Position numbers and translations under genes: made by a program. The notes beneath the pieces are model-generated. The model had not been told where the DNA came from and searched no databases. It saw nothing but the letters and a program-made list of their open reading frames with translations. Below, in pieces: positions 6,243 through 23,758 of a stretch of 64,000 nt of DNA. The DNA comes from a phage. The stretch lies in the sequence record OZ336094.1; one strand, 5' to 3'. Position 1 is the stretch's first letter, and each line of letters begins with the position of its first letter.

Positions 6243-8822
6243 TCAGTGACAACTAGCCCATGAGTTACCAACATCGTAACCAGCAGTGAGAGGTACATTA
6301 AGATTGTAATACTCACCAGCTTTATTAACAGCGATAGATGCTAATTCTCCAGCACGACTGTAGGCTGTAAACCAACCACCTTTCGGAGATTCATGTACGT
6401 TAGCCCAAATCTTGCCAGTACGTTTCTCTTCCTCTTCTTTCCAGGCATTAACTTTATCCAAACATTCTTTATCAATTTTCTTTTGTTCTTCTGGATCATC
6501 AACTTGAGTCCAACCTAAAGATTCTTTAGAGAACCATTTAAAATGCACCAGATCACGAGTTACTTCAAGCTGCGCTTCATCGTGATATGCAATCATTTGT
6601 TGAACGAATGACTTATTTTTCCAGTCATCAACAAAAAAGTCAACAGCTAATCCTTCTTCTTCGATAAGATCGTCGTAGATAACCATTGCTCTTTTTGCAC
6701 AAATAACACCACCACTCTGGAACAGAGAGTTAAGTATTGCGTGTGCAGATCGTGTAGGTACTTTTCTACCATCAATACCGAGAATGTATTTCTTACCTGT
6801 TTTAACCCAAAAATCATGCAGACGTTCTTTAAGAAGCGCAAGAGGTTTTGCAGCTTCCCAGAAAGCATCGTATACAAGCTGTCCTGTATACATATCACTA
6901 CCTATAGTTTTTGCTACTTTTGCAGCTTGAGCACCATAAGTAATACCATACTTAACAGATTTAGCAGGGCTTCGTTCAAACTTACGACCAATAGTGTCAG
7001 AAATACGTCGAGCCATCATTGTATGAACATCATTAGGTTTTTCCAATAATAGAGCATTACAATATTCGTGTGGTTCTTGCTCGTACCGCCAACAGTAGTG
7101 TGATTCTATTTTTGCCTCAAGAGAATCAAAGTCATAACCAATTTGGAAGTATTTTGGAACTTCTACACCAAATAAGTTACGCATTTCATATCCGTACAGA
7201 GATGTTACACGTGGGATATTTGCTACTAACCTATGTTTCATACGAGACGTAGCTGCATCACACGTTGCAGCAGGAGTTGGTATACGACCATCAGCCCTTA
7301 CTGCCGCCAGATAACCTTTATCGTAATCCTCTTCATCTTCTTCCCAATCAGCACCACCCCCTAGAATAGAGTTCCTACGGTGTTTATACGTAAGATACTG
7401 CACAATCTGCGTAGCATAAGGAAACTTTTCACCTAGTGCTTCCAAGTTAGGACAAATATCTTTCTCTTGCCCTTTTGTAAAGGAAGGGTTAGTAAGCACT
7501 TTAACACCACGACCTTTAGCTTTAGCAATACGATCTCTTAGTTTCCATTCCAAAGTTTCTGGTGTGCACTCTAGATGATCACATCTGTCCTGGCAGAAGT
7601 TAGATGCTAACGTTTGATCAACATAGTCACGAATAGCTTTCTCCATTTGTGCTTCATCTTTCTTAATCTTAGTGCCAGATTTAAGAGTGATATCTTTATC
7701 TTTGTATTCAGATGGACTCCAACCTAAACCAACTAACCAGTTTTTAATATGTGTAGTGTCGTCTAAAGTAGCAGGTACTGTAGGATCACAAATAGGTTCT
7801 TCTGCTGGAATAGGTAGTTTAAACTCCTTACCTAATGCAAATAGCCACCAACCATCTTCTTTTTGTACAAGTTCACCAGAATGTTTCTCTGCAAACTTTA
7901 TCATGTTACTTGAAGGTTCACCATTCTTTTTAAACTGTAGTTTAGGTGGAATGAATGATTTCAAATAACCTTTGGTAGCAGGTTTAGGAGGTAGCACAGG
8001 TTCTGCCTCTAAACGACATGCTTCCATTCGAGCATCCAGATCACGAATATTATCTTCTGCTTGTTTCATATTGAAAGCAAAGCCACGGTGCTCTTGACGT
8101 GTAATAATATCAGCTACACGTTGTTCTAAGTTAAATGGTTCAGACCACTTATTATAATCACCCCACTCTTCCATCAAATAACGGAACACTGCGGTGTTAG
8201 CTTTGTTATCGTAAATACAGTAATACAGCATATCTGCTGCAAATGTTTTAAATCTTTCAGTTTCAGGAATGTTTTTTCTAAAATCAATTTTAACATCCCC
8301 TCCAGCTTTCTTAGATAACTCTGCCAGACTATGACCACCGAAGCGATCAGGGTTTAGTGTCTTACTTAAGATCATAGTATCACAAATTTCAATGTTACTA
8401 TCACCCCAAGTATTGTACTTAACACTGTAGTTGAGTTTAAAAAATAATTTAATTGCCAGTAAGTCGAAGTTAATGATGTTGTGTCCAACTACTTTGGTAA
8501 TTTTATAGTTTGAATTACCTTTAAATTTACCTGTTCCATTTACAAAATCAGGAAAATCTTTAAGAGGGAAATGGGTATATTCTAAATGCTCATATTCCTC
8601 CAGTCGGTATTCATACTTTCCGTCAGTCTCAACATACGGACGACCATCGAAAAGATATTTATCACCATCATGGAAAGCAATAATCTCTCCAGTATCATGA
8701 CTTTCGCACACAATACAGTGCATTGCAAAACTATCTTTTAAACGATATGGACTTGCCAAGTAATCTACACTTTCGTCATTAAGCAAGTTGTTACTTTCAA
8801 TGTCGAAAGTAAAAGCTCCCAT
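6243..8822 (-). CDS. DNA polymerase, family A, with N-terminal 3'-5' exonuclease domain
   Basis: Exo motifs FDIE, GHNIINFD, YYCIYD; polymerase motif A-like DFDSLEAKI, motif B-like KSVKYGITYG, motif C YHDE; RBS ggaggg. Confidence 0.8.
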   Translation of the reverse strand: MGAFTFDIESNNLLNDESVDYLASPYRLKDSFAMHCIVCESHDTGEIIAFHDGDKYLFDGRPYVETDGKYEYRLEEYEHLEYTHFPLKDFPDFVNGTGKFKGNSNYKITKVVGHNIINFDLLAIKLFFKLNYSVKYNTWGDSNIEICDTMILSKTLNPDRFGGHSLAELSKKAGGDVKIDFRKNIPETERFKTFAADMLYYCIYDNKANTAVFRYLMEEWGDYNKWSEPFNLEQRVADIITRQEHRGFAFNMKQAEDNIRDLDARMEACRLEAEPVLPPKPATKGYLKSFIPPKLQFKKNGEPSSNMIKFAEKHSGELVQKEDGWWLFALGKEFKLPIPAEEPICDPTVPATLDDTTHIKNWLVGLGWSPSEYKDKDITLKSGTKIKKDEAQMEKAIRDYVDQTLASNFCQDRCDHLECTPETLEWKLRDRIAKAKGRGVKVLTNPSFTKGQEKDICPNLEALGEKFPYATQIVQYLTYKHRRNSILGGGADWEEDEEDYDKGYLAAVRADGRIPTPAATCDAATSRMKHRLVANIPRVTSLYGYEMRNLFGVEVPKYFQIGYDFDSLEAKIESHYCWRYEQEPHEYCNALLLEKPNDVHTMMARRISDTIGRKFERSPAKSVKYGITYGAQAAKVAKTIGSDMYTGQLVYDAFWEAAKPLALLKERLHDFWVKTGKKYILGIDGRKVPTRSAHAILNSLFQSGGVICAKRAMVIYDDLIEEEGLAVDFFVDDWKNKSFVQQMIAYHDEAQLEVTRDLVHFKWFSKESLGWTQVDDPEEQKKIDKECLDKVNAWKEEEEKRTGKIWANVHESPKGGWFTAYSRAGELASIAVNKAGEYYNLNVPLTAGYDVGNSWASCH

Positions 8823-9318: not shown

Positions 9319-11091
9319 TTAATAAGAACCAGCAGAAATATTTTCTGGGTTACTTGTGTATTGATCGTAATCGTGAAGTGTAGCTGTTTTAATCTCATAG
9401 AAGAAACTACCTGCTGCACCAGTCTCTGAGAACTCACGGTTCTTTAGAATGTAGCAATATGTGCGGTTACGTTCCATAGGATCTTCAGCTTGTTTATCCC
9501 GCTCCAGCGCAATTGTAATACCAGCACCTTTAGCAAGGAAGCTACTACCCATTGCATCATCTTCTACAATATGTTCATTACTATTGTTAGAAGACTTTTT
9601 AACGTGTGAAATTACAACAATGGTTATTGCGTACTCTTTCATAATGCGTTTCAGCCACGTCGCAAGTTCCTCTTGTTGTGACACGTCCATACCAGAAAGC
9701 AAGTCAGAATAAGGGTCGATAACAAGAATGGTTACTCCGAAATAAATAATCATTTCCAGAACCTTCTCTTTAATCACATCTACGTTAGCTCCACGATCAT
9801 CACAAACATAGAAACGTGGTGTTCCATCTTCCCGTTCGTAAAAATCACGAATCTTTTCTTCATTATCTTTTAAAATCTTTTCCTTCTCTTCTTTCGTTTT
9901 ACGGTGAAGAGGGATATGCAAGAATGAAGACAGTAAGTTACGAGAATACTTCTTATACGTTGCCTCCAAAGATAAAATACCAAGAGTATGTTCTGGGTGT
10001 GCAAGAATAATGTGTTTCGTAATCTCGTTAACCAACAGTGTCTTACCGATACTTGTTTTTGCAAGTATAACAGTAATTTCTTCTTCTACCAAGCCTCCAC
10101 CTAACATATTCGAAGCAACACGCATGAATGGAGGAAGGGTGATCATTTTAGCTTCCAGGCATTCCAAGGCTGCTTCATACAGTACGTTAGAAGCGTAAAC
10201 ACCAGCAGGTGTGTACAGTTTAGCTTTGAAAAAGCGATCAATAAAATGATCAATTTTTCCTTCTACTAGTGCCTGGTTAGGATCTTTAACATCCGTTAGT
10301 TCCATCACGTAAACTTTATTACGTGGTAAGATTTTAACACATTTCTCAACTGCTGCACGTCCAGCTTCATCATTATCCATACATAGAACAATCTTTTTAA
10401 ATTGATCTAAGAATTTATAACGATGTTGAAGCTGCTTATGCAGAGATGTTTCGCCACAAGTACCAGATACTACAGCAGGAACAGGATATTTACCACCCTT
10501 GTTATAATCTTTTAGCATCTGTGTTGCAGCCAGCATATCATGTTCACCACCAACGATTAGAATAGTACCGCTGTGGTTACGATATTTAAACTCACCAAAA
10601 AGATCACAATCCTTTCCTGTTTCACCGATAGGATGTGAGAAATCTTTTGGATCGATACGTTGTTTATACCCAGCAATATTGTAATCTTTAGTTGTAGGGT
10701 ATAGTGTTGAAATTACTTCGCCAGTAGCTTCATCGTACATATAGCGTACACCGAAAGGCTTAGAGATATCTTCACGAATACCGCGATAACCTTTTGGATT
10801 AGTTCCAGTGCTGGCTTTTAGTTTATCATGTACTTCTGGATTAAACTCACTACCCAAGATATCCTCCTCTTCAATTTCTTCGCCGTGTGCATTTAACCAT
10901 TTTTGATCAGGGATAGTAAAGCCACAAGAAAAACAATGTGCGCCTCGATGATCTTCATCGGCATCTAAGCCATATACCATCAAATTGTTTTGTGATCGAT
11001 CACGCCCTCCTTTCATACAACGAGGACACCCAGTATGTCCTTCTTGACTTAAATCAATGTTATACCCATATTTATTTACAACATAAGACAC
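9319..11091 (-). CDS. Primase-helicase (T7 gp4-like): N-terminal zinc-ribbon primase plus DnaB-like helicase
   Basis: Zn-binding CPRC...CFSCG at N-terminus; Walker A AKTSIGKT in C-terminal half; 590 aa. Confidence 0.75.
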   Translation of the reverse strand: MSYVVNKYGYNIDLSQEGHTGCPRCMKGGRDRSQNNLMVYGLDADEDHRGAHCFSCGFTIPDQKWLNAHGEEIEEEDILGSEFNPEVHDKLKASTGTNPKGYRGIREDISKPFGVRYMYDEATGEVISTLYPTTKDYNIAGYKQRIDPKDFSHPIGETGKDCDLFGEFKYRNHSGTILIVGGEHDMLAATQMLKDYNKGGKYPVPAVVSGTCGETSLHKQLQHRYKFLDQFKKIVLCMDNDEAGRAAVEKCVKILPRNKVYVMELTDVKDPNQALVEGKIDHFIDRFFKAKLYTPAGVYASNVLYEAALECLEAKMITLPPFMRVASNMLGGGLVEEEITVILAKTSIGKTLLVNEITKHIILAHPEHTLGILSLEATYKKYSRNLLSSFLHIPLHRKTKEEKEKILKDNEEKIRDFYEREDGTPRFYVCDDRGANVDVIKEKVLEMIIYFGVTILVIDPYSDLLSGMDVSQQEELATWLKRIMKEYAITIVVISHVKKSSNNSNEHIVEDDAMGSSFLAKGAGITIALERDKQAEDPMERNRTYCYILKNREFSETGAAGSFFYEIKTATLHDYDQYTSNPENISAGSY

Positions 11092-11103
11092 ATGATTCTC
11101 CTA

Positions 11104-11373
11104 CTAAAATGATTCGTTTGTCTCCATAATATATTGCATTTCCAAATCTTCCATATGTTTCTTAAATTGGTAAACAATTTCCGATGGGGAAATATCTATA
11201 TCAAAAAGTTCTTTTGTACCAGAATAAAATCTAATACCATCAACAATAAGACCACCATAATAATCCCAATCACTTTCTCGTGAGAAAGGATTAGGTTCTT
11301 CATAATAGTAATCTACTTCAACAATAATAGGTTCTTTATTATCTTGTTTATACTCAAAATCAAAAGTGTTCAT
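11104..11373 (-). CDS. Hypothetical protein, 89 aa
   Basis: Track ORF; acidic; start overlaps upstream gene stop. Confidence 0.4.
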   Translation of the reverse strand: MNTFDFEYKQDNKEPIIVEVDYYYEEPNPFSRESDWDYYGGLIVDGIRFYSGTKELFDIDISPSEIVYQFKKHMEDLEMQYIMETNESF

Positions 11374-12317
11374 TATAAATCCTCGATAAGCAGTCTGCGG
11401 GTTTCATTTAAATCATCAATATTGTAGTTATCTCTTACATACTTAGCAAGAGCCAATCCTTTCTCAATACAAACATCAGGAGATTCGATTAAGTATTCTA
11501 CAATATCTTTCCACTCTTTAACTGAATCAGCAAAGAAGATTAGATCTTTAAATTCTTCAGTATAATAGTTCTCTCGTGGAGAACAGACGAGTGGCAAACC
11601 TTTAGCACCAGCTTCAAGAATTTTTAAATTACTTTTGGCATTATTAAAATGATTATTTACTAATGGAGCTATGGAGATTTGATGACCATCGTATGCTTCC
11701 ATATAACACTCATAAGGACGAATACCTTCATAAACACAATCTGGTTGAATATCTTCTTTAATTTGCAACCATTGAGCACTACTTAACTCTTCGTGATCTC
11801 TACGAAATCCACATAAAGTTAAATCTTTACCAAAACCAGGAAGAATTGCTAAATCATGTTTATGTGTTTCACTTCCCGCCCAAACCAGTGGACTTTTAGA
11901 ATAACGGTCTTTCGTAAGAACAAACTGTCCTTCATCAAAAGGTAGTCCGTTAGGCACAATATGTACATTATCATTGTATTGGCTTAATTCAACCTTTAAT
12001 GCCGGAGTTGTTGTAGTTACAAGATCGCTTCTTTCAAGGAACCATTTTAGGTCATCTCGGATTTGATTTTCAAATAATCCTTCAAGCATATGCCCTTCAG
12101 GAATAATTAAAGAATCATCCAGATCCATTACCAATTTAAACCCAAGTTGTTTAAGAGCCAGGAAACCTGGCTTTCCACGTGTTGGTACTCCATTGAACAC
12201 AAAAATATTATGCTTAGGATTAATGGTCAGTTTGCGTTTATATGGCAAAATGATTCTATGAAAATCACATACACTATACTTTTCATTTCCGCGTGTGTCA
12301 AGAATAATATTAGGCAT
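11373..12317 (-). CDS. Putative GT-B fold glycosyltransferase (paralog 1)
   Basis: C-terminal motif KILEAGAKGLPLVCSP resembles the nucleotide-sugar-binding E..G..EA.A.G.P motif of GT1/GT4 enzymes; paralogous to 12329..13342. Confidence 0.45.
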   Translation of the reverse strand: MPNIILDTRGNEKYSVCDFHRIILPYKRKLTINPKHNIFVFNGVPTRGKPGFLALKQLGFKLVMDLDDSLIIPEGHMLEGLFENQIRDDLKWFLERSDLVTTTTPALKVELSQYNDNVHIVPNGLPFDEGQFVLTKDRYSKSPLVWAGSETHKHDLAILPGFGKDLTLCGFRRDHEELSSAQWLQIKEDIQPDCVYEGIRPYECYMEAYDGHQISIAPLVNNHFNNAKSNLKILEAGAKGLPLVCSPRENYYTEEFKDLIFFADSVKEWKDIVEYLIESPDVCIEKGLALAKYVRDNYNIDDLNETRRLLIEDL

Positions 12318-12328
12318 ATAGCTCCTTA

Positions 12329-13342
12329 TTAAAGACTTTCAATAACTTGACGACGCAGTTCATTGGCATCTGCAAGATTATAATTAAGACGAACGTGTTC
12401 TGCAAGCATCATACCACGATCTTCTGTGTATCTAGGGTTCCTCATTAGCTTGACAACTTCATAATGCCAAGATGCTTTAGAGTCTGCATAGATAACAGCC
12501 TTTGCATCTACCGGATTGAAGTACGGCAGCACAGGAGAACAGATAATAGGAAGACCCTTTGCACCTGCTTCCAAAATCTTCAAATTGCTTTTACAGTTGT
12601 TGAAGTCATTATCTACCAGAGGAGCAATTGCAATACTGTGACCGTCATACACAGACATATACTCACCTAAATTTTTAATAGCTGGTTTATACTGTGCATT
12701 TGGAATTTTACGTTTTATTTTAACCCACTCCGCAGTAGTTAGATACTGACTGTTATTTCCAACAGGTGCAGAAGGATACACTTCATACCCTGCAATTGTC
12801 AATAGTGTATCATCAAATGTATTAGCTACAAGAGATAAATCAGGTTCATGGCTTGCTCCTCCAGCCCAAACAATAGGTGTGTCAGAATAACGGTCTTTTG
12901 TTAAAGTAAATTGACCTTCGTCGTAAGGCAGTGCGTTTCTAATAACGACAACATTACGATTTAAATGACGAATTTTGTAAGCTAGGTATTCTGTTGTTAC
13001 TGTAACAACATCTGCTAACTTAACCATCTCTACAATAGTTTTTGAGTGATTAGTAAATACGCCAGCCATATAATGTTCAGGATTAAGCGAATAAAAATCA
13101 TCTAAATCAACAATAATCTTAACACCTTGTGCCTTCAGGCGTTTAACTTCGTCTGATCCACGAGAATACACTCTATTAAAAACTAAAACGTCTTTCTTAG
13201 GCTTAAACGTATTTCCCGCAAATGGCATTACAATACGATGGTAATCACAACCACTGCCTAACTTATTATCACACTTAAGTACAGGAGTATTAGGATTTAC
13301 CATATTTTTGAGCCTCCTCATAAGAGATAAAAGTTTTACCAT
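12329..13342 (-). CDS. Putative GT-B fold glycosyltransferase (paralog 2)
   Basis: Shares motifs with neighbour (DLDD, LTKDRYS, PIVWAGG, KILEAGAKGLPIICSP); tandem paralog. Confidence 0.45.
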   Translation of the reverse strand: MVKLLSLMRRLKNMVNPNTPVLKCDNKLGSGCDYHRIVMPFAGNTFKPKKDVLVFNRVYSRGSDEVKRLKAQGVKIIVDLDDFYSLNPEHYMAGVFTNHSKTIVEMVKLADVVTVTTEYLAYKIRHLNRNVVVIRNALPYDEGQFTLTKDRYSDTPIVWAGGASHEPDLSLVANTFDDTLLTIAGYEVYPSAPVGNNSQYLTTAEWVKIKRKIPNAQYKPAIKNLGEYMSVYDGHSIAIAPLVDNDFNNCKSNLKILEAGAKGLPIICSPVLPYFNPVDAKAVIYADSKASWHYEVVKLMRNPRYTEDRGMMLAEHVRLNYNLADANELRRQVIESL

Positions 13343-14053
13343 TGCGAAGATCCTCCAGTGATTGTTTATATTGTTCCCAGTTTACACCAATCCCCTGTTC
13401 TTTCTCTTCTTTTGACAGATTCGCAAAAGGTAAAGGATTATCTCCAAACACATCGTCAGGATGGATAAACGCCATAATTCGAATAGGACATGGTACACCG
13501 AGAATGCCTCGGTTCAAACCTGCCAGTGGAACGCGCTGAATCCACTCTGCATCTTCATATCCATAACCGTGGGTGTATGAGCGGAAATAGCCAGCTTTCT
13601 CAATAACTGCACGGGAATACATACCAAACTGGCACATACCTAGTTCCCAAATAACCACCTCCCCTTCAATACCTTTTACTTTATCTTTAAAGTATTCAGG
13701 CATACCAAAGAAATCCCAACCATTTTCCTTTGCCTCTCCCCTTCAATACCTTTTACTTTATCTTTAAAGTATTCAGGCATACCAAAGAAATCCCAACCAT
13801 TTTCCTTTGCCTGTTTTACAAAATATGTTTCCCACCCTGGAACAACAGGATAGCAATCATCATCAAAAATAAACCAGTAGTCATACCCTTCATCATAAAA
13901 CTTTTTCATCAGTTCATTACGGGCATATGCAACACCTTTTCGTTCACGATCATACTGTACAACAAAAGTAGCATTAGGATCAGTCACAAGATAATCTTTA
14001 AGAGGACGCTTACCTACAGTAATAACACCAACACCAATTTTTGTATTTTCCAA
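13290..14053 (-). pseudogene. GT-A-like glycosyltransferase gene disrupted by a 77-bp perfect tandem duplication (frameshift)
   Basis: Track ORFs 13676..14053 and 13290..13703 both encode GMPEYFKDKVKGIEGE; removing one repeat copy restores a single ~237-aa ORF with a DDD motif (YDYWFIFDDDCYP). Confidence 0.6.
13659..13812. repeat. Perfect direct tandem duplication, 2 x 77 bp, inside a coding sequence
   Basis: Identical copies at about 13659-13735 and 13736-13812 (ctccccttcaatacc...ttttcctttgcct); 77 is not a multiple of 3. Confidence 0.85.
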
Positions 14054-14062
14054 AATAACTCC

Positions 14063-14626
14063 TTAAATAATTTTATTCATGTCTTGACAATGTAAAAGGT
14101 GTGAAACAGCTTTTCTAGGATCATCATTACCTAAACGGTATGTGTGAAATAAATATAACCCACGTAGTAAACCTAGCCTTTTATTGTTAGCGTGCAATGC
14201 TTTAGAGAAAATTATATCAAACTGTATTGATCTTTCCTCAAAAGGGATTTCATTCCACAGACTCTTACGAAAGAGAAGAAAGAATCCTGCTAAGATAGCA
14301 TCTGTAGGTACTTCCTCTATTGAGTTTCCCCATTCTAGATGTGCTCTTTTTGCAATCTCAATGTGGTGTAATATATTCGGATCTTCACTTCTTTCATTAT
14401 TAAATAATTGATATGTTGATCCCAATCTGTTACAAGATGCACCAAGAACATCAAAATCAGGATTTGAACGGACAATTGATTCCAGCCAAGCAGGTTGTTC
14501 TGGAAGAAGAAACATTGTATCAATGTCTCTTAGGCAAATCCAACTATCTTCTGGTAAGACACTTATTGTGTCATTGATACCTTTTCCAATATCTCCAGAA
14601 AGATAGGGAGTTATGTGAAATATCAT
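14063..14626 (-). CDS. Hypothetical protein, possible nucleotide-sugar transferase
   Basis: 187 aa; DxD-like segment WICLRDIDTMF; sits in the glycosyltransferase cluster; weak call. Confidence 0.3.
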   Translation of the reverse strand: MIFHITPYLSGDIGKGINDTISVLPEDSWICLRDIDTMFLLPEQPAWLESIVRSNPDFDVLGASCNRLGSTYQLFNNERSEDPNILHHIEIAKRAHLEWGNSIEEVPTDAILAGFFLLFRKSLWNEIPFEERSIQFDIIFSKALHANNKRLGLLRGLYLFHTYRLGNDDPRKAVSHLLHCQDMNKII

Positions 14627-14683
14627 ACTCCCTCCGTATTATTACTTTAGCATTTTTAGACTAAAAAGTCCAAATGGTTTTAC

Positions 14684-14878
14684 CTATTGATTACGTTTTG
14701 CGAGTTCCATTTGGATAGCTAAACTGTGATCTCGTGCTTCCATATACTCTTTATATGTTTCATTAAGATGATCACGACAAACATCACGCAGTTTAATCAG
14801 TTTATCTGTAGGGATACCACTAAGATCATCCCAAGATTTTACAACTTCACCAGTATCATTGATCCCAATGGTTTTCAT
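14684..14878 (-). CDS. Hypothetical protein, 64 aa
   Basis: Track ORF in co-oriented array. Confidence 0.4.
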   Translation of the reverse strand: MKTIGINDTGEVVKSWDDLSGIPTDKLIKLRDVCRDHLNETYKEYMEARDHSLAIQMELAKRNQ

Positions 14879-15086
14879 CTACAACCTCCTTAATTGCTAC
14901 AGCACAGTTTTTGCAGATACACTGCCCTTTACCTTTAGAAATCTGGATGTAAGGTTCATTTTCATTTTCGCCCTTACGTGAGTCATATATTACAGTATTG
15001 AAGCACACAACGCAAATATTTTTTAAGATTGTATACTTATCAACTTTCTTTTTTGTTTTAAAGTTAACTTCAATAACATCAGCCAT
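14856..15086 (-). CDS. Hypothetical zinc-ribbon protein, 76 aa (start refined)
   Basis: Two CxxC pairs (CVVC...CKNC); internal ATG overlaps upstream stop (TGATG coupling). Confidence 0.4.
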   Translation of the reverse strand: MADVIEVNFKTKKKVDKYTILKNICVVCFNTVIYDSRKGENENEPYIQISKGKGQCICKNCAVAIKEVVDENHWDQ

Positions 15087-15374: not shown

Positions 15375-15884
15375 TTAGCGATAGAATTGATGTTCTTTGT
15401 AGCGGTACACTAGAACCATATCTTTTTCCCAGTGTGCTCTTATTGTAGATTTTTTAAAGTATAATGCTCCTTTTGTAATATCTAATGCAATTCGTAATTC
15501 TGGAAAATGCGTATCGAGATAAAGTAGACGTTCTGCTATAGCCTTAGCTTCCTTCCACTTATCACGTTCCATAACGTTGAATGTCTTTGTGTAAGAGAAT
15601 TGTCCTTTTTGAAACAAAACTTCTTTTATAGTATCAGGGAAATATGAATCTCTAGCCCTATTCAATACTACATTACCAACAGCAGACATACCGCGCTTTC
15701 CTTGATTACGACTTTCTGCATAGATTGCACAAGCTAATAGATTTTCTTTACTATCACGCTTTGTACACTTGTGAACTACTTTAGCAGTTTTTACGTTTGC
15801 AGCTTCGGCTTGCGCCACAACAGGTGTAAATGTAAAAGCAGTTAAGGATAGTAACGCAATTGCGACAAAGGTTTTTATTGACAA
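15375..15884 (-). CDS. Secreted cell-wall hydrolase, SleB/CwlJ family; candidate endolysin or lytic accessory enzyme
   Basis: N-terminal signal peptide (FVAIALLSLTAFTFTPVVAQA); motifs AIYAESRNQ and GMSAVGNVVLNR typical of SleB-type hydrolases. Confidence 0.6.
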   Translation of the reverse strand: MSIKTFVAIALLSLTAFTFTPVVAQAEAANVKTAKVVHKCTKRDSKENLLACAIYAESRNQGKRGMSAVGNVVLNRARDSYFPDTIKEVLFQKGQFSYTKTFNVMERDKWKEAKAIAERLLYLDTHFPELRIALDITKGALYFKKSTIRAHWEKDMVLVYRYKEHQFYR

Positions 15885-15977
15885 ACTTGCCTCCTATTTT
15901 GTTAAACGAACTTTTATTGTAACACAGAAGAGGCTGTTTTGCAAGTGGAGGGGGATAATCCCCCCTCTTACACCCTG

Positions 15978-16580
15978 TTAGATGTTGTAAACCTTCGTAT
16001 GAGTTACTACACCATCTTCTACAAAATCAATACGTTCTTGATCCGTAACTAGTGCAGACAATACTTTAAATTTAATTGTTACACGTTCAAAAGCTGGTTG
16101 ACCATCTTTAAGATAATTATGTTCAGTTGTTACTGTCTTGTTTACAAAATCAACTTTTGCTTTACCGTTTTCGCGTAGGTGGAATGTTTTTCCTGCTTTG
16201 TACACAATTTCAACATTACCTTCGAGAGTAATTCCTTCAAAAAGTTCACCCTCTTCTTCATTTTCTTCATTTTTGAACAGACGACGAAACTCTTCCATAT
16301 CAAGATAAACAACATCTTCAGAATAACTATCAGTAAGGTATGTCTTACCATCCATTAACCCGAAATATTGCCAGATTGCAGAATAAACATCACTAGTTGA
16401 TCCAAGGGTTTCTCTGAGTTTAGTTCCACGGATTACTTCATAAACTTCAAAATTGAAACCAGACTGCAAAGCATTAAACAGTACATCACTAACTTCTAAA
16501 GCATAATCTTCATTGTTGTCAATATCCACAAGAAAATTACCGCTACGAATAAGTTTTTGACCTTCTAAAGTAATACCCAT
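15978..16580 (-). CDS. Hypothetical protein, 200 aa
   Basis: Track ORF adjacent to TerD-like gene; no motif recognised. Confidence 0.45.
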   Translation of the reverse strand: MGITLEGQKLIRSGNFLVDIDNNEDYALEVSDVLFNALQSGFNFEVYEVIRGTKLRETLGSTSDVYSAIWQYFGLMDGKTYLTDSYSEDVVYLDMEEFRRLFKNEENEEEGELFEGITLEGNVEIVYKAGKTFHLRENGKAKVDFVNKTVTTEHNYLKDGQPAFERVTIKFKVLSALVTDQERIDFVEDGVVTHTKVYNI

Positions 16581-16599
16581 TGTTTTCTCCTCTTTTATT

Positions 16600-16626
16600 T
16601 AAAATATGCGCCCCGAAGGGCGCTAT
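16600..16626 (-). terminator. Terminator hairpin (GCGCCC-CGAA-GGGCGC) downstream of the TerD-like gene
   Basis: 6-bp GC stem with tetraloop, T-rich tract follows on minus strand. Confidence 0.5.
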
Positions 16627-16632
16627 GATTTA

Positions 16633-17229
16633 TTACTCGAACCAATCGTCGCCAGCGCCAAACGCTTTAACTACATCATAAATGTCAAGTCCAGCTTTAC
16701 CTACACCATATGCTTTCAGTTTCCATTCGCTATCTTCCCGCACCAGGGAGGCAACGTGGCAAATGGTGTTACCTGCAAGTTCTGGAGCCAAGAAATCAAA
16801 ATCCAGCAGTTCAACGTTACGTTCATCATCGAAGATTTTAAGGAAACCTTCGGTAGCGTGACCAAGGCGTTTTTTACCCGTTTCGTCATCAATAGTAATT
16901 ACGAATGCAATTTCCTGTGCTTCAGCAGAGATATTATCCAGTGTAACATCAATCTGCTCCATCTGTCCTACACCGTCACGAACATCTTCACCTGCAAAAG
17001 TAGAACGTTCAGGATCAAATTTCTGTGCGTAGCATACCAGGTGGCGAGGAGACAACAGTTCCGGCAGACCAGATGCATTGTGTCGGCAAATCAGAGCACT
17101 AACATCCAGATCCAGTTTTTCGTTAGATTTCCAAGAGAATTCCAGACGAATGCGTTTCAGTGCTGGTGCAATCTTTTTCAGAGAAACTTTTTCGCTAGAA
17201 CCTTTTTTCAGGGAAATTTTCTGAGTCAT
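16633..17229 (-). CDS. terD: TerD-family protein (tellurite-resistance / stress-response TerD domain)
   Basis: 198 aa, typical TerD size; segments LDLDVSALIC and FAGEDVRDGVG...IDV resemble TerD Ca-binding motifs; RBS aaggag. Confidence 0.6.
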   Translation of the reverse strand: MTQKISLKKGSSEKVSLKKIAPALKRIRLEFSWKSNEKLDLDVSALICRHNASGLPELLSPRHLVCYAQKFDPERSTFAGEDVRDGVGQMEQIDVTLDNISAEAQEIAFVITIDDETGKKRLGHATEGFLKIFDDERNVELLDFDFLAPELAGNTICHVASLVREDSEWKLKAYGVGKAGLDIYDVVKAFGAGDDWFE

Positions 17230-17301
17230 AATTTATTATCTCCTTTGTTGTTAATTTACGTTGTCTATTTTACTAATCTTTTCTACAAAGTCAAGCGTTT
17301 T

Positions 17302-18096
17302 TTACGCTTTTGCTCCAAATTTTTTAACCCACTCACCAAACTCTTCGGATAGCAGTTTATCGTAAAGTTCTTCGTCAGACAAGGACAAATCTGCAATACC
17401 GATAAAATCAACATTATCGTATTCTTTTGCCAAGTCTTTCAGGAATTTAAAGTTTGCATTGCCTACACCAACCATAAACCAGTAAACAGGAGTGTTGCGG
17501 TGTTTGTTCAGCAAACTACGTACTGCTGAAGTATCCATGTTCTCCCCGTCAGTTTGGAAGAAAATCATTGCAGGAGTACGATCAACTTGTGCATCAGTAT
17601 CTACAACCTGTTCTACAACAGTACGTGTAACTTCTACACGTTCTTTTTTACCAGTTAGTTTAGCAAGGAAACCCTTAGCCGGAACTTCTTCATACTCAAC
17701 GACTTCGCGTGTAATATTTTTCATAGGTACACTACCGAAGTATGTATCATAGATCTCTTGCATTACTGGGGCATAAGCTGTACCACCATTGATGCAAACA
17801 TTAGACATACAAGAGCCGACATAATCATCATATACATCAGCCGTTGCAGGAGGCAGTTCAAAAGAAGAACTATTGAAAGCCCACATGTCAATCTGTGCAT
17901 TATCATCAAACTTCATACCAAACGGCAGCAGTTTACCTACAAAATCACTAACAGTGCCATCACGATACAGCTCACACATACTACCCGAAATATCTAAGGC
18001 ACTACCGACACGAAGAACAACATCGTTAATCTTTTTCTTACGCAGAGATACGGTAAGAGTTTCTTGACGTTTTTTAAGACTGATTTTATTGGACAT
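17302..18096 (-). CDS. von Willebrand factor A domain protein (TerY-like)
   Basis: MIDAS motif DISGSM near N-terminus; 264 aa; adjacent to TerD. Confidence 0.6.
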   Translation of the reverse strand: MSNKISLKKRQETLTVSLRKKKINDVVLRVGSALDISGSMCELYRDGTVSDFVGKLLPFGMKFDDNAQIDMWAFNSSSFELPPATADVYDDYVGSCMSNVCINGGTAYAPVMQEIYDTYFGSVPMKNITREVVEYEEVPAKGFLAKLTGKKERVEVTRTVVEQVVDTDAQVDRTPAMIFFQTDGENMDTSAVRSLLNKHRNTPVYWFMVGVGNANFKFLKDLAKEYDNVDFIGIADLSLSDEELYDKLLSEEFGEWVKKFGAKA

Positions 18097-18097
18097 A

Positions 18098-18367
18098 TTA
18101 TTTCTCCTTTCTGAGTGTAATGTTAGTAACTTCTAAATCCACTTCTACCATTTCTGTATCATACGAAATACAGCTAAGTTGACCTCTTTGCGAACCGTTC
18201 AGACACATTGCTTGGTTTGTATTAACCTTAATAAACACTAAGTTTCTGAACGTATCTAAACCAGAATCTTGATAGGCAACATAATATACAAATGTATCAC
18301 CTACGTCAAGTTCTCCAAAACATTTAGGTTCATCTGATTTGTCGTCTTTGATATTAAATTTAAGCAC
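18098..18367 (-). CDS. Hypothetical protein, 89 aa
   Basis: Track ORF in co-oriented array. Confidence 0.4.
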   Translation of the reverse strand: MLKFNIKDDKSDEPKCFGELDVGDTFVYYVAYQDSGLDTFRNLVFIKVNTNQAMCLNGSQRGQLSCISYDTEMVEVDLEVTNITLRKEK

Positions 18368-18923
18368 TGTCTTCTCCTTTACCTGCTCTCAAGCCTAAAT
18401 AGAAAGCCTCTCTGGTGATCTTTTGCAACTCGTTTAAAGAGATAGTTACAACTAAATCATCTTCAATTTCTAGCTTTGAGTCTTCTTCTGTCTCAATGCA
18501 AGTATTATGCACTTTGTGGTAAGGATTGTCAACACGTTTAAATTTATTATTTTCAGTGCTGAAGAAGCAATCTGGATCTTCTTCCCCATCACCCCAACCC
18601 TGGTTAGGATCTTCTTCAGATCTTTCTGTTGGGATCTCGCCTGTAAAGTGCTCTTCTAATACCAGAGCAATCCCATCTCCAAGATCGGAAGAGAACATCA
18701 AATTACAAACTTCTTCCCAAGGCATAGACCACTTAAATCTTTTACGATTGCCATGTTTATCTTCTTCGTTAGAGAAAACACTACCATAGCTATCATAATT
18801 CCCATACATCTCTTCGACTACCTTACCACCTTTCAAAAGAAATAGGTAGCAAGGAGAGCCATCGAAAGAGGTAGAAAGAGCAGCATTACCAGACTCTTTG
18901 CACAAGAAACTAAAACACCCCAT
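18360..18923 (-). CDS. Hypothetical protein, 187 aa
   Basis: Track ORF; acidic C-terminal half. Confidence 0.45.
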   Translation of the reverse strand: MGCFSFLCKESGNAALSTSFDGSPCYLFLLKGGKVVEEMYGNYDSYGSVFSNEEDKHGNRKRFKWSMPWEEVCNLMFSSDLGDGIALVLEEHFTGEIPTERSEEDPNQGWGDGEEDPDCFFSTENNKFKRVDNPYHKVHNTCIETEEDSKLEIEDDLVVTISLNELQKITREAFYLGLRAGKGEDSA

Positions 18924-19123
18924 TATACACCAGCCTTAAGATCAATTAAAGCCAAAGTTGTTTCAGAGTGTGTTTGCTCGTCTACAGGTGCAGTCATATG
19001 ATAATACAAAAAATCTTCGGCATCATACCAATCTGATTCTTGACCTTGTTTCCAACCATCAATGAAAGCATCTTCCACAATGGTTTGCAATTCTTCACGA
19101 GTTAAGTGAATATCTTTACTCAT
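18923..19123 (-). CDS. Hypothetical protein, 66 aa
   Basis: Track ORF; stop/start overlaps with neighbours. Confidence 0.4.
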   Translation of the reverse strand: MSKDIHLTREELQTIVEDAFIDGWKQGQESDWYDAEDFLYYHMTAPVDEQTHSETTLALIDLKAGV

Positions 19124-19329
19124 TACACATTCTCCTCTTTTACCAATTCCATTGTTGAATTGTCAAAACCATCTTTAGAAGAATAGGTATAGACAGAACG
19201 TAGTTCTCGCAGGACAGTGAATACATTAGGATCATCTAACCAAGCATCCTGGAGGAGAACATAACGATCTTCATTGTCATATTGAACAGCAATCATAGAA
19301 CCAGACAGTTTGTAAATTTTAATATTCAT
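19123..19329 (-). CDS. Hypothetical protein, 68 aa (start refined to Met 10 with RBS aaggag)
   Basis: Track ORF 19123..19356; internal ATG preceded by aaggag. Confidence 0.4.
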   Translation of the reverse strand: MNIKIYKLSGSMIAVQYDNEDRYVLLQDAWLDDPNVFTVLRELRSVYTYSSKDGFDNSTMELVKEENV

Positions 19330-19342
19330 AATATATTTCTCC

Positions 19343-20446
19343 TTAAAGTAGACCACGTTTAACAGTTTGAATCATACCATCTTCAAGAGATTGCACTTCT
19401 TGAATGTAATCAATACGAGCAGCACGGGCTTCAGTGTTGATTCGGTTAGTTTCTTCCAACATTTTAACTAAGTTTTCTTGATCACGACGCAATGTTTCAA
19501 TATCCAATACTTGACGATTAGCAAGTTGTGTAGCTTCAATTTGGTTTTGTGCAGCCAGATCACTACCCATTGCAATAGCAGCATTAAATTCATTCAGTAC
19601 ATTGTTCTGTGTATCGGCTGCTTTCTTCTGGCGTAGACTTTCAATATACATAGAAAAGTTTGCAGAGTAAGCAGGAATAACATTATTCACAATATTACGG
19701 GCTGATCGCATCAAACTTGCAGATACTTTCTGCATACTTTGTACACGTGGCCCCATCTGAACACACAGTAAACGCAAGGCTTTCAGATCTGCAATACGAA
19801 TTTCAAGCAGATCCATAGTATCACGAGTACGTTGACGCTCTTCTACTTCATTTTCAGGTAGTGTATTAAGGCGAACTTCTTCTTTTTCATAAGTAGCTGT
19901 TAGAAGCTCTATATCCCTGTTTAAGCTAAGAGCATATTTTGCAATAGCTTCCTCTAAACGTTGCAGATATCGTAAAGAATCTTCTTCTTTTTTCAAGTCT
20001 GTTTGGAGTGTCTTTACCAAACCTTCAATACGGTTATTGATGGTGTCAAATTCTCCAAACAAATCTTCTTTCATACCTAAAACTTTCTTAACTAGTTTAC
20101 CTAAACCTTTAGATTGTTTAATAGAGTTAGGATCAAGTTGCTTTGCTTGCTTAATAAGCGCAGTTAAACGTTCACTCATTTCATCTCCCTGAGATGAACG
20201 CTGGTGTTTAAGCACTTCAGCATTAAGGTTACGAAGAGTAAGTCCTGCATCAGCACCAACCTGTTCAATCTCTTCACGAGACATTGGAGGCAGCATTTGT
20301 ACAGGGCGTGCAACAGCAGGGGCATATACAGGGCTTGCATCCATAGCACTTGGAGCAAACAAAGACTTACTTTTTTCTGTTGTTGCCGTGAATACACTCA
20401 TTTCAGACGGTTTGCTTTTTACGGCACTGATAAAAGGACTGGACAT
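19343..20446 (-). CDS. TelA-like toxic-anion-resistance family protein (coiled-coil)
   Basis: 367 aa, size and predicted coiled-coil character of TelA; context with TerD, vWA and TerC; call is context-weighted. Confidence 0.4.
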   Translation of the reverse strand: MSSPFISAVKSKPSEMSVFTATTEKSKSLFAPSAMDASPVYAPAVARPVQMLPPMSREEIEQVGADAGLTLRNLNAEVLKHQRSSQGDEMSERLTALIKQAKQLDPNSIKQSKGLGKLVKKVLGMKEDLFGEFDTINNRIEGLVKTLQTDLKKEEDSLRYLQRLEEAIAKYALSLNRDIELLTATYEKEEVRLNTLPENEVEERQRTRDTMDLLEIRIADLKALRLLCVQMGPRVQSMQKVSASLMRSARNIVNNVIPAYSANFSMYIESLRQKKAADTQNNVLNEFNAAIAMGSDLAAQNQIEATQLANRQVLDIETLRRDQENLVKMLEETNRINTEARAARIDYIQEVQSLEDGMIQTVKRGLL

Positions 20447-20514
20447 TCAATTTCCTCCATATTCTTTAGTAAATGGTGATACCTCTGTACCACCATCATA
20501 ACACAAGTTAAGTA

Positions 20515-21366
20515 TTAAACAAACATATCTAAATAATTTGTAGTAATAAATGCTCCATCTGCTTCCAGATTAACATAACCCGTGGTATTAGTAGTTAAGA
20601 AATCCAGATCGAAGGACTCTTTAACACCCCGTACCTCAACACGAGAGATATCGAATACAGGTAGTGTAACAGCCTCTTCGTGCAATACCGTACCTTTGTA
20701 GGTTGCCTTAATGATAAACTTGATATTACCTGTTCCAGCATCATATAAAACACTTTCAAACCCTTTGAGAGTATATTTATCACCAGAAGTGAAGTGCAAA
20801 GTTGCTTTGTTTACAGTACGTTTCTTACGAGGAGTTCCTTTCACACGTTTATGATCACTACGTTTTTTGTATTTAGGAATGAATACAAACGATACACTCT
20901 CAAGAAAGGTATCAACATCAAGGATTTTAATATCCTCTGTTGCAGCAAATTTTGAAGTCGTTGCATCAAAATGCTTTTCCCTGCGATCATACATAAAGAT
21001 ATCAAACCGATCTTCTAAATCAAACAAATTATGTATTTTAATTTCAGAATGCTTGCGCATTGCAGCAACCTTGAACTCTTCAAAACGTGGGTGTTCTACA
21101 AGTTCTTCAAGTTTTACACCAAAGACAGTATATTGCTTCGAAGTCTTTTCTGGTGTTGGCATTACAGAAGCATAGTCCCCGATTGCGCTCTTAAAGCAAA
21201 ATTGTTCTTGACCTGTATTTTTACCAACGAATTTACAGTATTCGTCATTGTGCATACTTTCCTTAGTAGTACCAACAAACTCAAAACCATCTTTATTCTT
21301 CTCAAGAATTTCTTGATTAAAAATCCAACCTTCCAGGCGATACACTTTACCAACTTCTAGTTTCAT
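20515..21366 (-). CDS. Hypothetical protein, 283 aa
   Basis: Track ORF; no motif recognised. Confidence 0.45.
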   Translation of the reverse strand: MKLEVGKVYRLEGWIFNQEILEKNKDGFEFVGTTKESMHNDEYCKFVGKNTGQEQFCFKSAIGDYASVMPTPEKTSKQYTVFGVKLEELVEHPRFEEFKVAAMRKHSEIKIHNLFDLEDRFDIFMYDRREKHFDATTSKFAATEDIKILDVDTFLESVSFVFIPKYKKRSDHKRVKGTPRKKRTVNKATLHFTSGDKYTLKGFESVLYDAGTGNIKFIIKATYKGTVLHEEAVTLPVFDISRVEVRGVKESFDLDFLTTNTTGYVNLEADGAFITTNYLDMFV

Positions 21367-21401
21367 CTGTTTCTCCTTCTTATTTAATCTGTATTAAATT
21401 A

Positions 21402-21992
21402 TTAACGACGACGTGAGCTACTAAAACTACGTTTCGACGAAGAATAACTTTTCGAAGACTTACTATAAGAGCTAATAGGGCTTGAGTAAGACTTACGAGC
21501 AGAGTAATCACTATTCACTTTTGTTGTTGACGGGCGTGAATACGTTTGTACACTTTGCTGCTTAATTGTGTTTTGTTTAGTGGTTGTATATGTATTCCCT
21601 TGTTTATCATAAAAACGATGCTTTTGTGTTGTATATGCTTTACTATTAGTTGTAGGAGCAGCGTTGTTATTGATAATTGTTGTATTGCTACCGCCATCTC
21701 TATAACCACCACCGCCACTATTACCACTCAACATATGACCAAGAAGCATACCTGTAGCAAACTCACCTACACCAGAAGAACCACTACCGCCTCCTTGCAC
21801 AACAACTGTTGAAGGTTGTGCAGGTGCTGCTTGAACAACTTGAGGTGCAGGCTGATTTACATATTGTTCATCTACCATCTGATTTGGTGTTTGTTGGTAA
21901 CGTTGATTTTGTACATTTTCAGAATCATCACAACCTACCAGCAATGCACTACCTAAAACAACTGCAACAATAAAAGATTTAATGTTTTTCAT
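21402..21992 (-). CDS. Putative lipoprotein with Ser/Tyr-rich low-complexity C-terminus (start refined)
   Basis: Signal peptide with lipobox LVGC (MKNIKSFIVAVVLGSALLVGCDD); RBS gagagg; Gly-rich and SYSS-repeat tail. Confidence 0.5.
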   Translation of the reverse strand: MKNIKSFIVAVVLGSALLVGCDDSENVQNQRYQQTPNQMVDEQYVNQPAPQVVQAAPAQPSTVVVQGGGSGSSGVGEFATGMLLGHMLSGNSGGGGYRDGGSNTTIINNNAAPTTNSKAYTTQKHRFYDKQGNTYTTTKQNTIKQQSVQTYSRPSTTKVNSDYSARKSYSSPISSYSKSSKSYSSSKRSFSSSRRR

Positions 21993-22185
21993 TTGTAACC
22001 CTCTCATTTAAAGTCTCAACACAATTTTTAAAATCCCTAGAGAAACAATACATCTGTTCTCCGTTCCTGTTGATAGTAATTGTATGGTTATCAATATATG
22101 TTGTCAAGATAAAAATCAAACAAAACAACCCTAGAGCAAAACAAATATTTTCAAACAGAATCCAAAGAACACGTAAAACCACCAT
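21979..22185 (-). CDS. Hypothetical small membrane protein, 68 aa
   Basis: Hydrophobic N-terminus; RBS gaggtg; overlaps start of lipoprotein gene. Confidence 0.35.
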   Translation of the reverse strand: MVVLRVLWILFENICFALGLFCLIFILTTYIDNHTITINRNGEQMYCFSRDFKNCVETLNERVTNEKH

Positions 22186-22199
22186 CAGATCACCTCAAC

Positions 22200-22219
22200 A
22201 AAGCCCCCGAAGGGGCTTA
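22200..22219 (-). terminator. Hairpin (AGCCCC-CGAA-GGGGCT) downstream of the TerC-like gene
   Basis: GC stem with tetraloop; weak T-tail. Confidence 0.4.
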
Positions 22220-22224
22220 ATGAA

Positions 22225-23202
22225 TTAAGCAACAGTCTGGTCTTCTTTTTCAGGGAAGATTAAACTTGCAACAACACCCAACCCAAGAGTACCTAACACA
22301 ATATACATACTGATCGTCGGATCAATGTGTGCTGGCAGGAAACTGACTTTTGCGTGCAGAGTTTCTGCAAACGGGTGATACATCAGTTTTACACCCACAA
22401 ACACCAGGACTACGATAACTGCTTTCTCCAGATGAACCAAATACTTCAGTGCAACACTAAGAACAAAGAACAGAGCACGTAAACCTAAGATTGCACAGAG
22501 CATCGAAGAGAACACCAGTAGAGGTTCTTGTGTCACTGCAATTACTGCTGGAACAGAGTCTACTGCAAAGATTACGTCAACCATTTCCATTACAAACACA
22601 CAAACCAGAGCCGGAGTTGCTACACGAACACCATTTTTGATTGTGAAGAACTTCTCACCATCCATCTGATCAGATACAGGGAACAGCTTACGAACAATGC
22701 GAGTAGCCCAGTGTTTAGAGTAATCAACTTCTGCATCATTATCTCCAGCGAATACCATTTTAGCCGCACAGAAAAGGATGACAGCACCGAAGAAGATATT
22801 AACATACCAGCCCAAACTCAACAAGTAAGTACCTACTGCTACAAACACACCTCGGAAGACAATCGCACCTGCAATACCCCAAAGTAGAATCTTGTGCTGC
22901 AAGTGTGTGCTTTTAATACCAAAACTTGCGAAGACTGCCACAAATACTACTAAGTTATCTACAGAAAGAGATTTCTCCAACACATACCCACTCAAAAACA
23001 AGCTCGCAAAATCAGCACCGTGTTGGAAGTATACAAAACCATAGTAGGCTAATGATACCCCAATCCAGAAAATTGACCAGCCAATTGCAGATTTAAATGA
23101 AATTTCTTTGTTTTCTCTGTGTCCAAAGAAGTCAATACAAATCGACAAGACTAAAATACCCACTAAAACAACCACATCAATAATTGGGAAACCCAGTTGC
23201 AT
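22225..23202 (-). CDS. terC: TerC-family integral membrane protein
   Basis: 325 aa with multiple TM segments; motif EKSLSVDNLVVF matches the conserved TerC signature. Confidence 0.6.
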   Translation of the reverse strand: MQLGFPIIDVVVLVGILVLSICIDFFGHRENKEISFKSAIGWSIFWIGVSLAYYGFVYFQHGADFASLFLSGYVLEKSLSVDNLVVFVAVFASFGIKSTHLQHKILLWGIAGAIVFRGVFVAVGTYLLSLGWYVNIFFGAVILFCAAKMVFAGDNDAEVDYSKHWATRIVRKLFPVSDQMDGEKFFTIKNGVRVATPALVCVFVMEMVDVIFAVDSVPAVIAVTQEPLLVFSSMLCAILGLRALFFVLSVALKYLVHLEKAVIVVLVFVGVKLMYHPFAETLHAKVSFLPAHIDPTISMYIVLGTLGLGVVASLIFPEKEDQTVA

Positions 23203-23219
23203 TCTTTTCTCCTCTTTAA

Positions 23220-23238
23220 TGCGGAGGACAATCCTCCG
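23220..23238 (-). terminator. Hairpin (GCGGAGGA-CAA-TCCTCCGC) between an upstream small gene and terC
   Basis: 8-bp stem; no strong T-run, may be an RNA-stability or attenuator element. Confidence 0.35.
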
Positions 23239-23279
23239 CTCTATGTCTTATACTATAAACTGTTTTTAAAGAAAGTCAA

Positions 23280-23528: not shown

Positions 23529-23542
23529 ATAAAAATCCTCTC

Positions 23543-23749: not shown

Positions 23750-23758
23750 ACTTTCTCC

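Follow-up and report, generated by a model that had tools for sequence, protein, structure and literature searches.

In the mycobacteriophage Che8, the capsid and tail tube proteins are glycosylated and gp110 is reported to be essential for capsid glycosylation, according to two reports through which the wider virion glycosylation system of Che8 gp108-110 and Corndog gp38 (Freeman et al., 2023) is also cited (PMC12363180; PMC11256854). In the T-even phages, glycosyltransferases (GTs) of the GT-B and GT-A folds (T4 alpha-GT and beta-GT; the beta-glucosyl-HMC-alpha-glucosyltransferase of T2 and T6; TAGT, the TET-associated glycosyltransferase, PF20691) are encoded among DNA-metabolism genes and use UDP-glucose as the donor for the hypermodification of DNA. 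Chloroviruses and giant viruses encode their own GTs and sugar-nucleotide enzymes, including those of rhamnose synthesis, with which they add glycans to their major capsid protein without relying on the host. The system compared with these here is a cluster of four GT genes at positions 14626-11373, minus strand, of a 64,000-nucleotide stretch of phage DNA (sequence record OZ336094.1; the whole stretch is referred to as the window), which by its sequence matches comes from a Justusliebigvirus (phi92-like) coliphage. The cluster is read as a portable cassette that would glycosylate virion proteins, and a probability of about 45% is assigned to this reading.

The genes are transcribed in the order GT4, GT-A, GT-B2 and GT-B1, GT4 being the label used here for the fourth, small gene (the first to be transcribed) and not the CAZy family GT4. 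A preliminary description of this DNA, made from the sequence alone, had placed four GT-like genes at 11373-14626, and this was borne out: four minus-strand open reading frames (ORFs) lie exactly there, all four products match PHROG glycosyltransferase families (E 1e-78 to 1e-149), and the products are indeed glycosyltransferases. Each of the related phage records (56/56) contains the cluster, with its genes annotated; the RefSeq label of all four genes is glycosyltransferase, and the BASEL authors named the two GT-B proteins 'putative disaccharide synthase' and the other two 'putative glycosyltransferase'. NCBIfam holds no family for any of the four proteins, and searches of PDB sequences with GT4, GT-A and GT-B2 as queries, carried out with single sequences and with profiles, returned no glycosyltransferase match.

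GT4 (14063-14626, minus strand, 187 aa) encodes a small protein with the DxD motif RDIDT that matches phrog_14179, 'glycosyltransferase' (E 5.5e-113). The product itself has no Pfam match. Its family, with a size of ~1,200 clusters at 50% identity, has D34, D36, T37, N66, R67, H161, Y163 and R164 as invariant residues in the alignment; the domain matches Pfam Glycos_transf_2, Glyco_tranf_2_3 or Glyco_tranf_2_5 in some distant relatives and is often fused to TOD1_MUCI70, GT2 or Methyltransf_24 domains. The invariant DxD and the Pfam hits of the relatives thus point indirectly to a GT2-like GT-A glycosyltransferase; the gene had been described earlier as one for a further possible sugar transferase. 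A comparison of the GT4 and GT-A family profiles was not significant.

The second gene, GT-A (13290-14053, minus strand), encodes 228 aa in relatives and is found intact as bas60_0050 in PaulScherrer (MZ501100.1), a 99%-identical phage. The protein carries R...DDD...ED motifs, of which DDD and ED are invariant in the family, and matches phrog_2456 (E 1.2e-78). An AlphaFold (AF2) model made on the 78%-identical homolog P0121 shows a GT-A fold with a predicted local distance difference test score (pLDDT) of 88.6, and its top PDB matches are STIV A197, WrtF, LH3, TarP and RmlT (E 4.5e-6 to ~1e-3); the protein is accordingly modelled as an enzyme with a single Rossmann-like GT-A fold and a DxD motif. 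The preliminary description had listed a 'duplicated' GT-A-like gene with a DDD motif, and the motif is indeed present (FIFDDDCYP), but the gene is not intact in the window, where a 77-nt repeat splits it into ORFs at 13676-14053 (125 aa) and 13290-13703 (137 aa).

The third gene, GT-B2 (12329-13342, minus strand), encodes 337 aa as an ORF; translation probably begins at M14 (13303), since the protein is annotated with 324 aa in relatives and the pLDDT of the model is low over residues 1-20. The AF2 model of GT-B2 (pLDDT 93.7) has a GT-B fold, and the best Foldseek matches in the PDB are GlgM, BshA, MshA, PglA, TreT, SdgB and TarM (E 1e-9 to 1e-7; template modelling scores of 0.5-0.6), most of the leading ones being of CAZy GT4 type. 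Matches of GT-B2 to Pfam Glyco_trans_1_4 and Glyco_trans_1_2 fall under the cut-off. The fourth gene, GT-B1 (11373-12317, minus strand, 314 aa), is a diverged tandem paralog, 41% identical to GT-B2 over 324 residues (E 4e-83), whose product matches Pfam Glyco_trans_1_2 (PF13524) with 26.9 bits, above the 25-bit cut-off. The pair carries KILEAGAKGLPLVCSP and KILEAGAKGLPIICSP, so that the tandem paralogous GT-B genes with a KILEAGAKGLP motif noted earlier are both there, and a K-S-N-L-K-x-L-E-x-G motif is invariant in the GT-B family. With the CAZy GT4-type enzymes BshA, MshA, GlgM, PglA, SdgB and TarM the window GT-B proteins share the fold and the C-terminal nucleotide-sugar motif LKILEAGAKGLP, which corresponds to the second half of the EX7E region; they differ from them in sequence (12-17% identity), in that the first glutamate of EX7E is not conserved, in being shorter (~310 aa) and in belonging to a phage-borne family. 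On this evidence they are CAZy GT4-like enzymes of the two-Rossmann-domain GT-B fold that bind the nucleotide sugar through a C-terminal motif. A large protein collection contains more than 400 members of the GT-B family, which is almost entirely phage-borne; among its best 120 hits, 4 are in NCBI genome assemblies and the rest in metagenomes or read-archive assemblies.

The order GT4, GT-A, GT-B is kept, at 35-47% identity, in several unrelated phages, and these comparisons show the cassette to be portable with its gene order conserved. In a Pseudomonas alliivorans prophage (locus L009) it is directly flanked by the major capsid gene and the head-tail connector genes, and its ORFs overlap and share the strand of the late genes. 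In an Enterobacter huaxiensis prophage (L007) the lysis genes are followed by GT4, a dehydratase-like SDR gene, GT-A and GT-B and then by HNH, terminase and capsid genes; a Pbunavirus-like phage (L010-12) has a holin gene, GT-A and GT-B and then terminase; and two loci with a lambda-E-type capsid (L017, L018) have GT-B, with or without GT-A, directly upstream of the terminase, portal and capsid genes. In Streptomyces phage Zuko a dehydratase-like gp4 and a GT-B gp5 stand just ahead of terminase and portal, and in Cellulophaga phage phi18:2 a fused GT with a GT4 domain, adjoining a Methyltransf_24 gene, lies between the portal/MuF and the protease/capsid genes. Placement beside primase-helicase and DNA polymerase A genes is limited to one broad lineage of large myoviruses (the window, L015, L022, L023 and L025), whose cassettes are linked to a Ter-type cluster as well. 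GT-B1 and GT-B2 occur together in Justusliebigvirus, Phapecoctavirus and L022, and a single GT-B is found in a Klebsiella relative, L023 and L025. Judged by sequence identity, GT-B2 is the copy nearest to the single GT-B found elsewhere (43-47% identical in L007, L009, L010 and L015), and GT-B1, which shares 34-39% identity with the GT-B proteins of other phages, is a lineage-specific duplicate. As a separate observation, behind the GT-A/GT-B pair of a metagenomic phage (L024, 9973-14346) come four unannotated proteins of 279-359 aa and one that is nucleotidyltransferase-like, just before the baseplate genes; this may be a larger glycan-building locus.

The donor can be approached through the sugar-nucleotide genes. 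RmlB, RmlA, RmlC and RmlD of a relative all score above the NCBIfam equivalog cut-offs, their genes (rmlBACD) lying elsewhere in the genome in the nucleotide-metabolism region, and phi92-like phages and phapecoctaviruses have been described as encoding a complete dTDP-rhamnose pathway (Olsen et al., 2020; PMC7552041). Across phage records the taxonomic distribution of RmlD matches that of the GT genes, an agreement largely due to shared descent. In L007, L023 and Zuko a dTDP-glucose-4,6-dehydratase-like enzyme is encoded within the cassette or next to it, so that by gene content the cassette is repeatedly linked to 4,6-dehydratase-type sugar enzymes. Because of these enzymes and the RmlBACD set of the relative, the most reasonable inference is a 6-deoxyhexose donor, which in the window phage would be dTDP-L-rhamnose.

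In the mechanism favoured here, the two GT-A and two GT-B enzymes would constitute a glycan-building cassette, the phage rmlBACD genes would supply dTDP-L-rhamnose as the activated 6-deoxyhexose donor, and a short glycan would be assembled on an acceptor other than DNA, the likeliest being structural proteins of the virion (those of capsid, decoration or tail, as in Che8), where its role would be that of a surface glycan coat. Virion proteins are suggested as the acceptor because of the late or head-module position of the cassette in small phages, the lack of a base-hydroxylating partner and a link to mycobacteriophages. As to the latter, a tblastn search with GT-A matched 341 records of Mycobacterium phages (~26% identity, E ~1e-7), near the right genome end, and GT-A matches the N-terminal domain of Llij gp96 (pairwise E 2e-11), which is encoded two genes from gp98, a protein 84.5% identical to Che8 gp110; the homologous domain thus stands in a cluster F locus that holds the Che8 gp110 ortholog. 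The window cassette resembles the mycobacteriophage system further in being a phage cluster of several soluble GTs, in having GT4 relatives fused or adjacent to Methyltransf_24 and in looking dispensable and mobile. It differs in that its proteins have no detectable similarity to gp108, gp109 or gp110, in its Gram-negative hosts, in having GT-B enzymes and a dTDP-rhamnose pathway, and in that the virion glycan of its carriers is a predicted one. With the chlorovirus system (PBCV-1 A064R) the comparison is more distant, since that belongs to eukaryotic viruses and uses different enzymes; giant-virus GT-A proteins are found among the fold matches in BFVD. Modification of host or virion glycans had been put forward in the preliminary description only as an alternative to DNA, and it is now the better supported of the two.

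Several points weigh against virion proteins as the acceptor. Neither glycosylated virion proteins of phi92-like phages nor experiments on these genes were found in the searchable literature. The Che8 link runs only via Llij gp96, at ~25% identity, and no match to Che8 gp108, gp109 or gp110 was obtained, either by BLASTP (GT-A against all three, GT-B2 against gp108) or by hhalign (GT-A and GT4 profiles against gp109 and gp110). Accessory genes are often found just upstream of terminase, which makes the context suggestive rather than decisive, and late expression would equally suit the modification of DNA before packaging. Throughout the large-myovirus lineage (the window, L015, L022, L023, L025) the cassette stands beside the primase-helicase and DNA polymerase genes instead. 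The capsid families of the carriers are unrelated, no common acceptor protein was identified among them, and fold matches cannot name the acceptor, as published DNA-modifying phage GTs also match BshA, MshA, PglH, TarP and a chlorovirus capsid GT.

As candidates for a common acceptor the structural proteins of the carriers were compared and rejected: only a lambda-E-type capsid is shared, between the phi92-like phages and L017 alone (31% identity), and the decoration proteins are dissimilar.

Both the genes and the DNA hypothesis have been published before, and the cross-phage cassette with the virion glycan that it implies is a modest, testable lead. If virion proteins are the acceptor, this would be the first system for the glycosylation of virion proteins in phages with Gram-negative hosts, with a cassette shared across many lineages, and virion glycosylation would be a general phage trait rather than an actinophage curiosity. 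A glycan coat would then be present on phi92-like and phAPEC8-like phages, which are broad-host-range therapy candidates, and by analogy with Che8 it could change antibody recognition, stability or mucus binding.

It is unlikely, if the best placed of the alternatives, that the sugars are transferred onto a host glycoconjugate, such as the lipopolysaccharide core, enterobacterial common antigen, NGR glycan or a lipid-linked intermediate, where they would block receptors and lead to superinfection exclusion or spare the progeny from adsorption to cell debris. Among the nearest structural neighbours of GT-B2 are PglA, PimB' and TarM, enzymes that act on glycans of the cell wall or linked to lipids; TarP, RmlT and WrtF are matched by the GT-A model, phi92-like phages recognise several surface glycans, and the BASEL name of the GT-B proteins, disaccharide synthase, would fit as well; carriage of the cassette by prophages would suit lysogenic conversion. 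In the prophages, however, the genes lie within the late structural operon and in its orientation and do not form an independently expressed moron, and late expression would leave little time for envelope remodelling. No membrane-spanning component, flippase or Gtr-like partner accompanies any version of the cassette (L007, L009 and L010-12 loci), and envelope glycans differ among the hosts of the carriers (Pseudomonas, Enterobacter, Escherichia and metagenomic hosts).

A T-even-like hypermodification of DNA, in which rhamnose or other sugars would be added to a hydroxylated base, was the reading of the preliminary description and, in the form of rhamnosylated hydroxymethylated nucleotides, the proposal of Olsen et al. 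(2020; PMC7552041); it is judged very unlikely. The cluster adjoins the primase-helicase gene (11091-9319, minus strand) and the DNA polymerase A gene (6243-8822, minus strand, 859 aa) on the same strand, and a promoter and terminator scan placed no terminator-like site between ~16.6 kb and 8.9 kb, hence none inside the cluster. On the minus strand the cluster lies upstream (5') of them, and 'downstream', as it had been described, holds only in plus-strand coordinates. This placement, with GT-B and GT-A enzymes among DNA-metabolism genes, had been said to mirror that of the T-even GT genes, an argument weakened by the occurrence of the same cassette in or near the packaging and head modules of unrelated phages. 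A DNA acceptor is further favoured by weak partial matches of GT-A, over the nucleotide-binding/DDD segment, to TAGT (E 3e-5) and to phrog_842, the PHROG of beta-glucosyl-HMC-alpha-glucosyltransferase (E 5e-5), and by the likeness of the R...DDD...ED motifs to those of DNA-modifying GT-As, motifs that are generic to GT2-like enzymes. The location of rmlBACD in the nucleotide-metabolism region and the presence in the genome of a Dcm-like C5-methyltransferase and a divergent ThyX-like protein also fit.

Against a DNA acceptor stands first the phenotype. Phi92-like phages were found to be 'exceptionally susceptible' to restriction-modification (RM) despite 'a putative dTDP glycosylation machinery' (Maffei et al., 2021; PMC8594841), and they are hit by Druantia III and ARMADA II, which spare the hypermodified Straboviridae (PMC13463889). 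A base-hydroxylating pathway was likewise missing from the genome content, for which the annotation of PaulScherrer was combined with Pfam searches of those hypothetical proteins that reach 106 aa or more (66 proteins): this set yielded no ThyA-type hydroxymethylase, no TET/JBP or other 2-oxoglutarate oxygenase and no deoxynucleoside monophosphate kinase, so that the search for hydroxymethylase and nucleotide kinase genes beyond the window, suggested in the preliminary description, came back empty, and the Dcm-like methyltransferase stands there without an oxygenase. The 'thymidylate synthase' of PaulScherrer (128024-128995, 323 aa) is predicted to be a divergent ThyX-type enzyme (Pfam Thy1, 31.5 bits), scoring 35 bits with NCBIfam thyX, far under the 88-bit cut-off. 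By sequence, then, there is no recognisable route to a hydroxylated base. In the small phages the cassette stands alone, and no TET/JBP dioxygenase, hydroxymethylcytosine pathway or other base-modifying gene lies within 8-10 kb of it in L007, L009, L010, L017 or L018. The enzymes themselves also speak against it, as the profile and structure comparison with the T4 enzymes that had been proposed earlier gave no match: the Pfam models of T4 alpha-GT and beta-GT do not match either GT-B at E up to 1, GT-B2 and its family profile found no GT among all PDB sequences, and T4 enzymes are missing from the top 50 PDB matches that Foldseek gave for the GT-B2 model, all of which are other enzymes of the GT-B fold, mostly of CAZy GT4 type. 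The match of GT-A to TAGT (PF20691) is partial, being limited to positions 36-96 of the 205 in the profile (its nucleotide-binding/DDD third), and its 23.3-24.3 bits fall below the gathering cut-off of 27.5. The donor too would differ, being probably a dTDP-6-deoxyhexose in the window phage, and three of the four GT proteins are acidic (pI, isoelectric point, of 5.1-5.6), which is a weak argument. Because of the missing hydroxylase pathway, the lack of similarity to the T4 GTs and the published restriction sensitivity, T-even-like hypermodification is not favoured, and the 2020 suggestion of rhamnosylated DNA is supported neither by genome content nor by phenotype. Literature searches returned no DNA nucleoside analysis of phi92-like phages.

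Still less probable is that the cassette makes a soluble glycoside or a conjugate of a small molecule, perhaps in connection with the adjacent Ter-type cluster and the phosphoribosyltransferase and HAD phosphatase encoded there. The leading structural matches of GT-B include BshA, MshA, GlgM, TreT and tetrahydrobiopterin glucosyltransferase, which make small-molecule glycosides; the GT cluster is linked to Hydrolase_2, TerD, vWA-TerF, TelA and TerC genes in the window phage, L022 and L023; and phosphoribosyltransferase and HAD genes follow a few kb on in the window phage and its close relatives. Four glycosyltransferases, however, suggest an oligosaccharide and not a single glycoside, and the linkage to Ter genes is probably one of shared descent, because they are absent from the cassette outside the large-myovirus lineage. 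The least probable of all is that rhamnose is added to DNA without a ThyA- or TET-type hydroxylase, through the ThyX-like protein or at Dcm-like sites, with a density too low or a context too narrow to block RM, which would, if true, be a new kind of phage DNA modification.

The split of GT-A in the window is due to a perfect tandem duplication of 2 x 77 nt (13659-13735 and 13736-13812, copies 100% identical), which shifts the frame; removal of one copy in silico restores the 228-aa GT-A of the relatives. The repeat occurs in 0 of the 56 related records, each of which has one copy, its junction was not found in IMG/VR, and no microhomology flanks it. The default largest k-mer of SPAdes is 77, and an untrimmed overlap of contig ends in a re-linearised genome yields a repeat of this kind; SPAdes node names are contained in the annotation of the nearest relative, Escherichia phage Paula (LR865361.1). 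Because of this agreement in length, these node names and the absence of the repeat from every relative, it is probably an untrimmed assembler overlap, and the split gene an assembly artefact rather than a real knockout. A natural frameshift or slippage at the repeat was considered and rejected, as it adds 25 codons and 2 nt, has no slippery context and is unique to the window. The split GT-A therefore gives no reliable information on gene function and should not be taken as a natural knockout.

The assignment of the window rests on positions 11000-15000, which matched the 56 phage records at 95-100% identity; these are Justusliebigvirus coliphages (Stephanstirmvirinae) or entries mislabelled as Campylobacter phages. 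The latter (MG065639, MG065656, MG065689 and related records) bear 'Campylobacter phage' names, a length of 146,366 bp and Campylobacter jejuni as the host, and their GT-B1, GT4 and RmlD proteins are ~99% identical to those of the window coliphage; they are probably contaminants or mislabelled entries. Paula is ~99.8% identical to the window, which relative to Paula has 40 substitutions and one 77-nt insertion over 26 kb. The substitutions are unevenly spread, with 39 in the first 13.7 kb, many of the first-listed ones at 4.0-4.6 kb, and 1 in the next 12.2 kb, which suggests a recombined patch.

Next to the cluster, an ORF of 89 aa (11104-11373, minus strand) encodes an acidic protein (pI 4.1) of unknown function that matches phrog_4240 (E 8e-35), and its start overlaps the GT-B1 stop. 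A homolog of 47% identity follows GT-B in Klebsiella phage phi1_175008 and ORFs of 83-89 aa stand at the same spot in L022, L023 and L025, so that the ORF is conserved after GT-B in the large-myovirus lineage; none lies beside the cassette in L007, L009 or L010, and it is uncertain whether it belongs to the cassette. The Ter-type stress cluster (15375-25974, minus strand) adjoins the GT genes on their upstream side, with a SleB-like cell-wall hydrolase (15375-15884), TerD (16633-17229), vWA-TerF (~17302-18096), TelA (~19343-20446) and TerC (~22225-23202), after which come macrodomain/phosphatase, phosphoribosyltransferase and HAD genes (~23759-25974). In L022 and L023, which are distant relatives, the core Ter genes are likewise linked to the GT cassette, primase-helicase and PolA. 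In the window and in Paula the DNA polymerase A gene is uninterrupted, and an intein is present in that of PaulScherrer (1,104 aa precursor). Promoter-like sites in the scan barely exceed the shuffled expectation. The sign of the GC skew flips near 40 kb of the window, where transcription switches from the minus strand of the replication/Ter module to the plus strand of a small early gene block.

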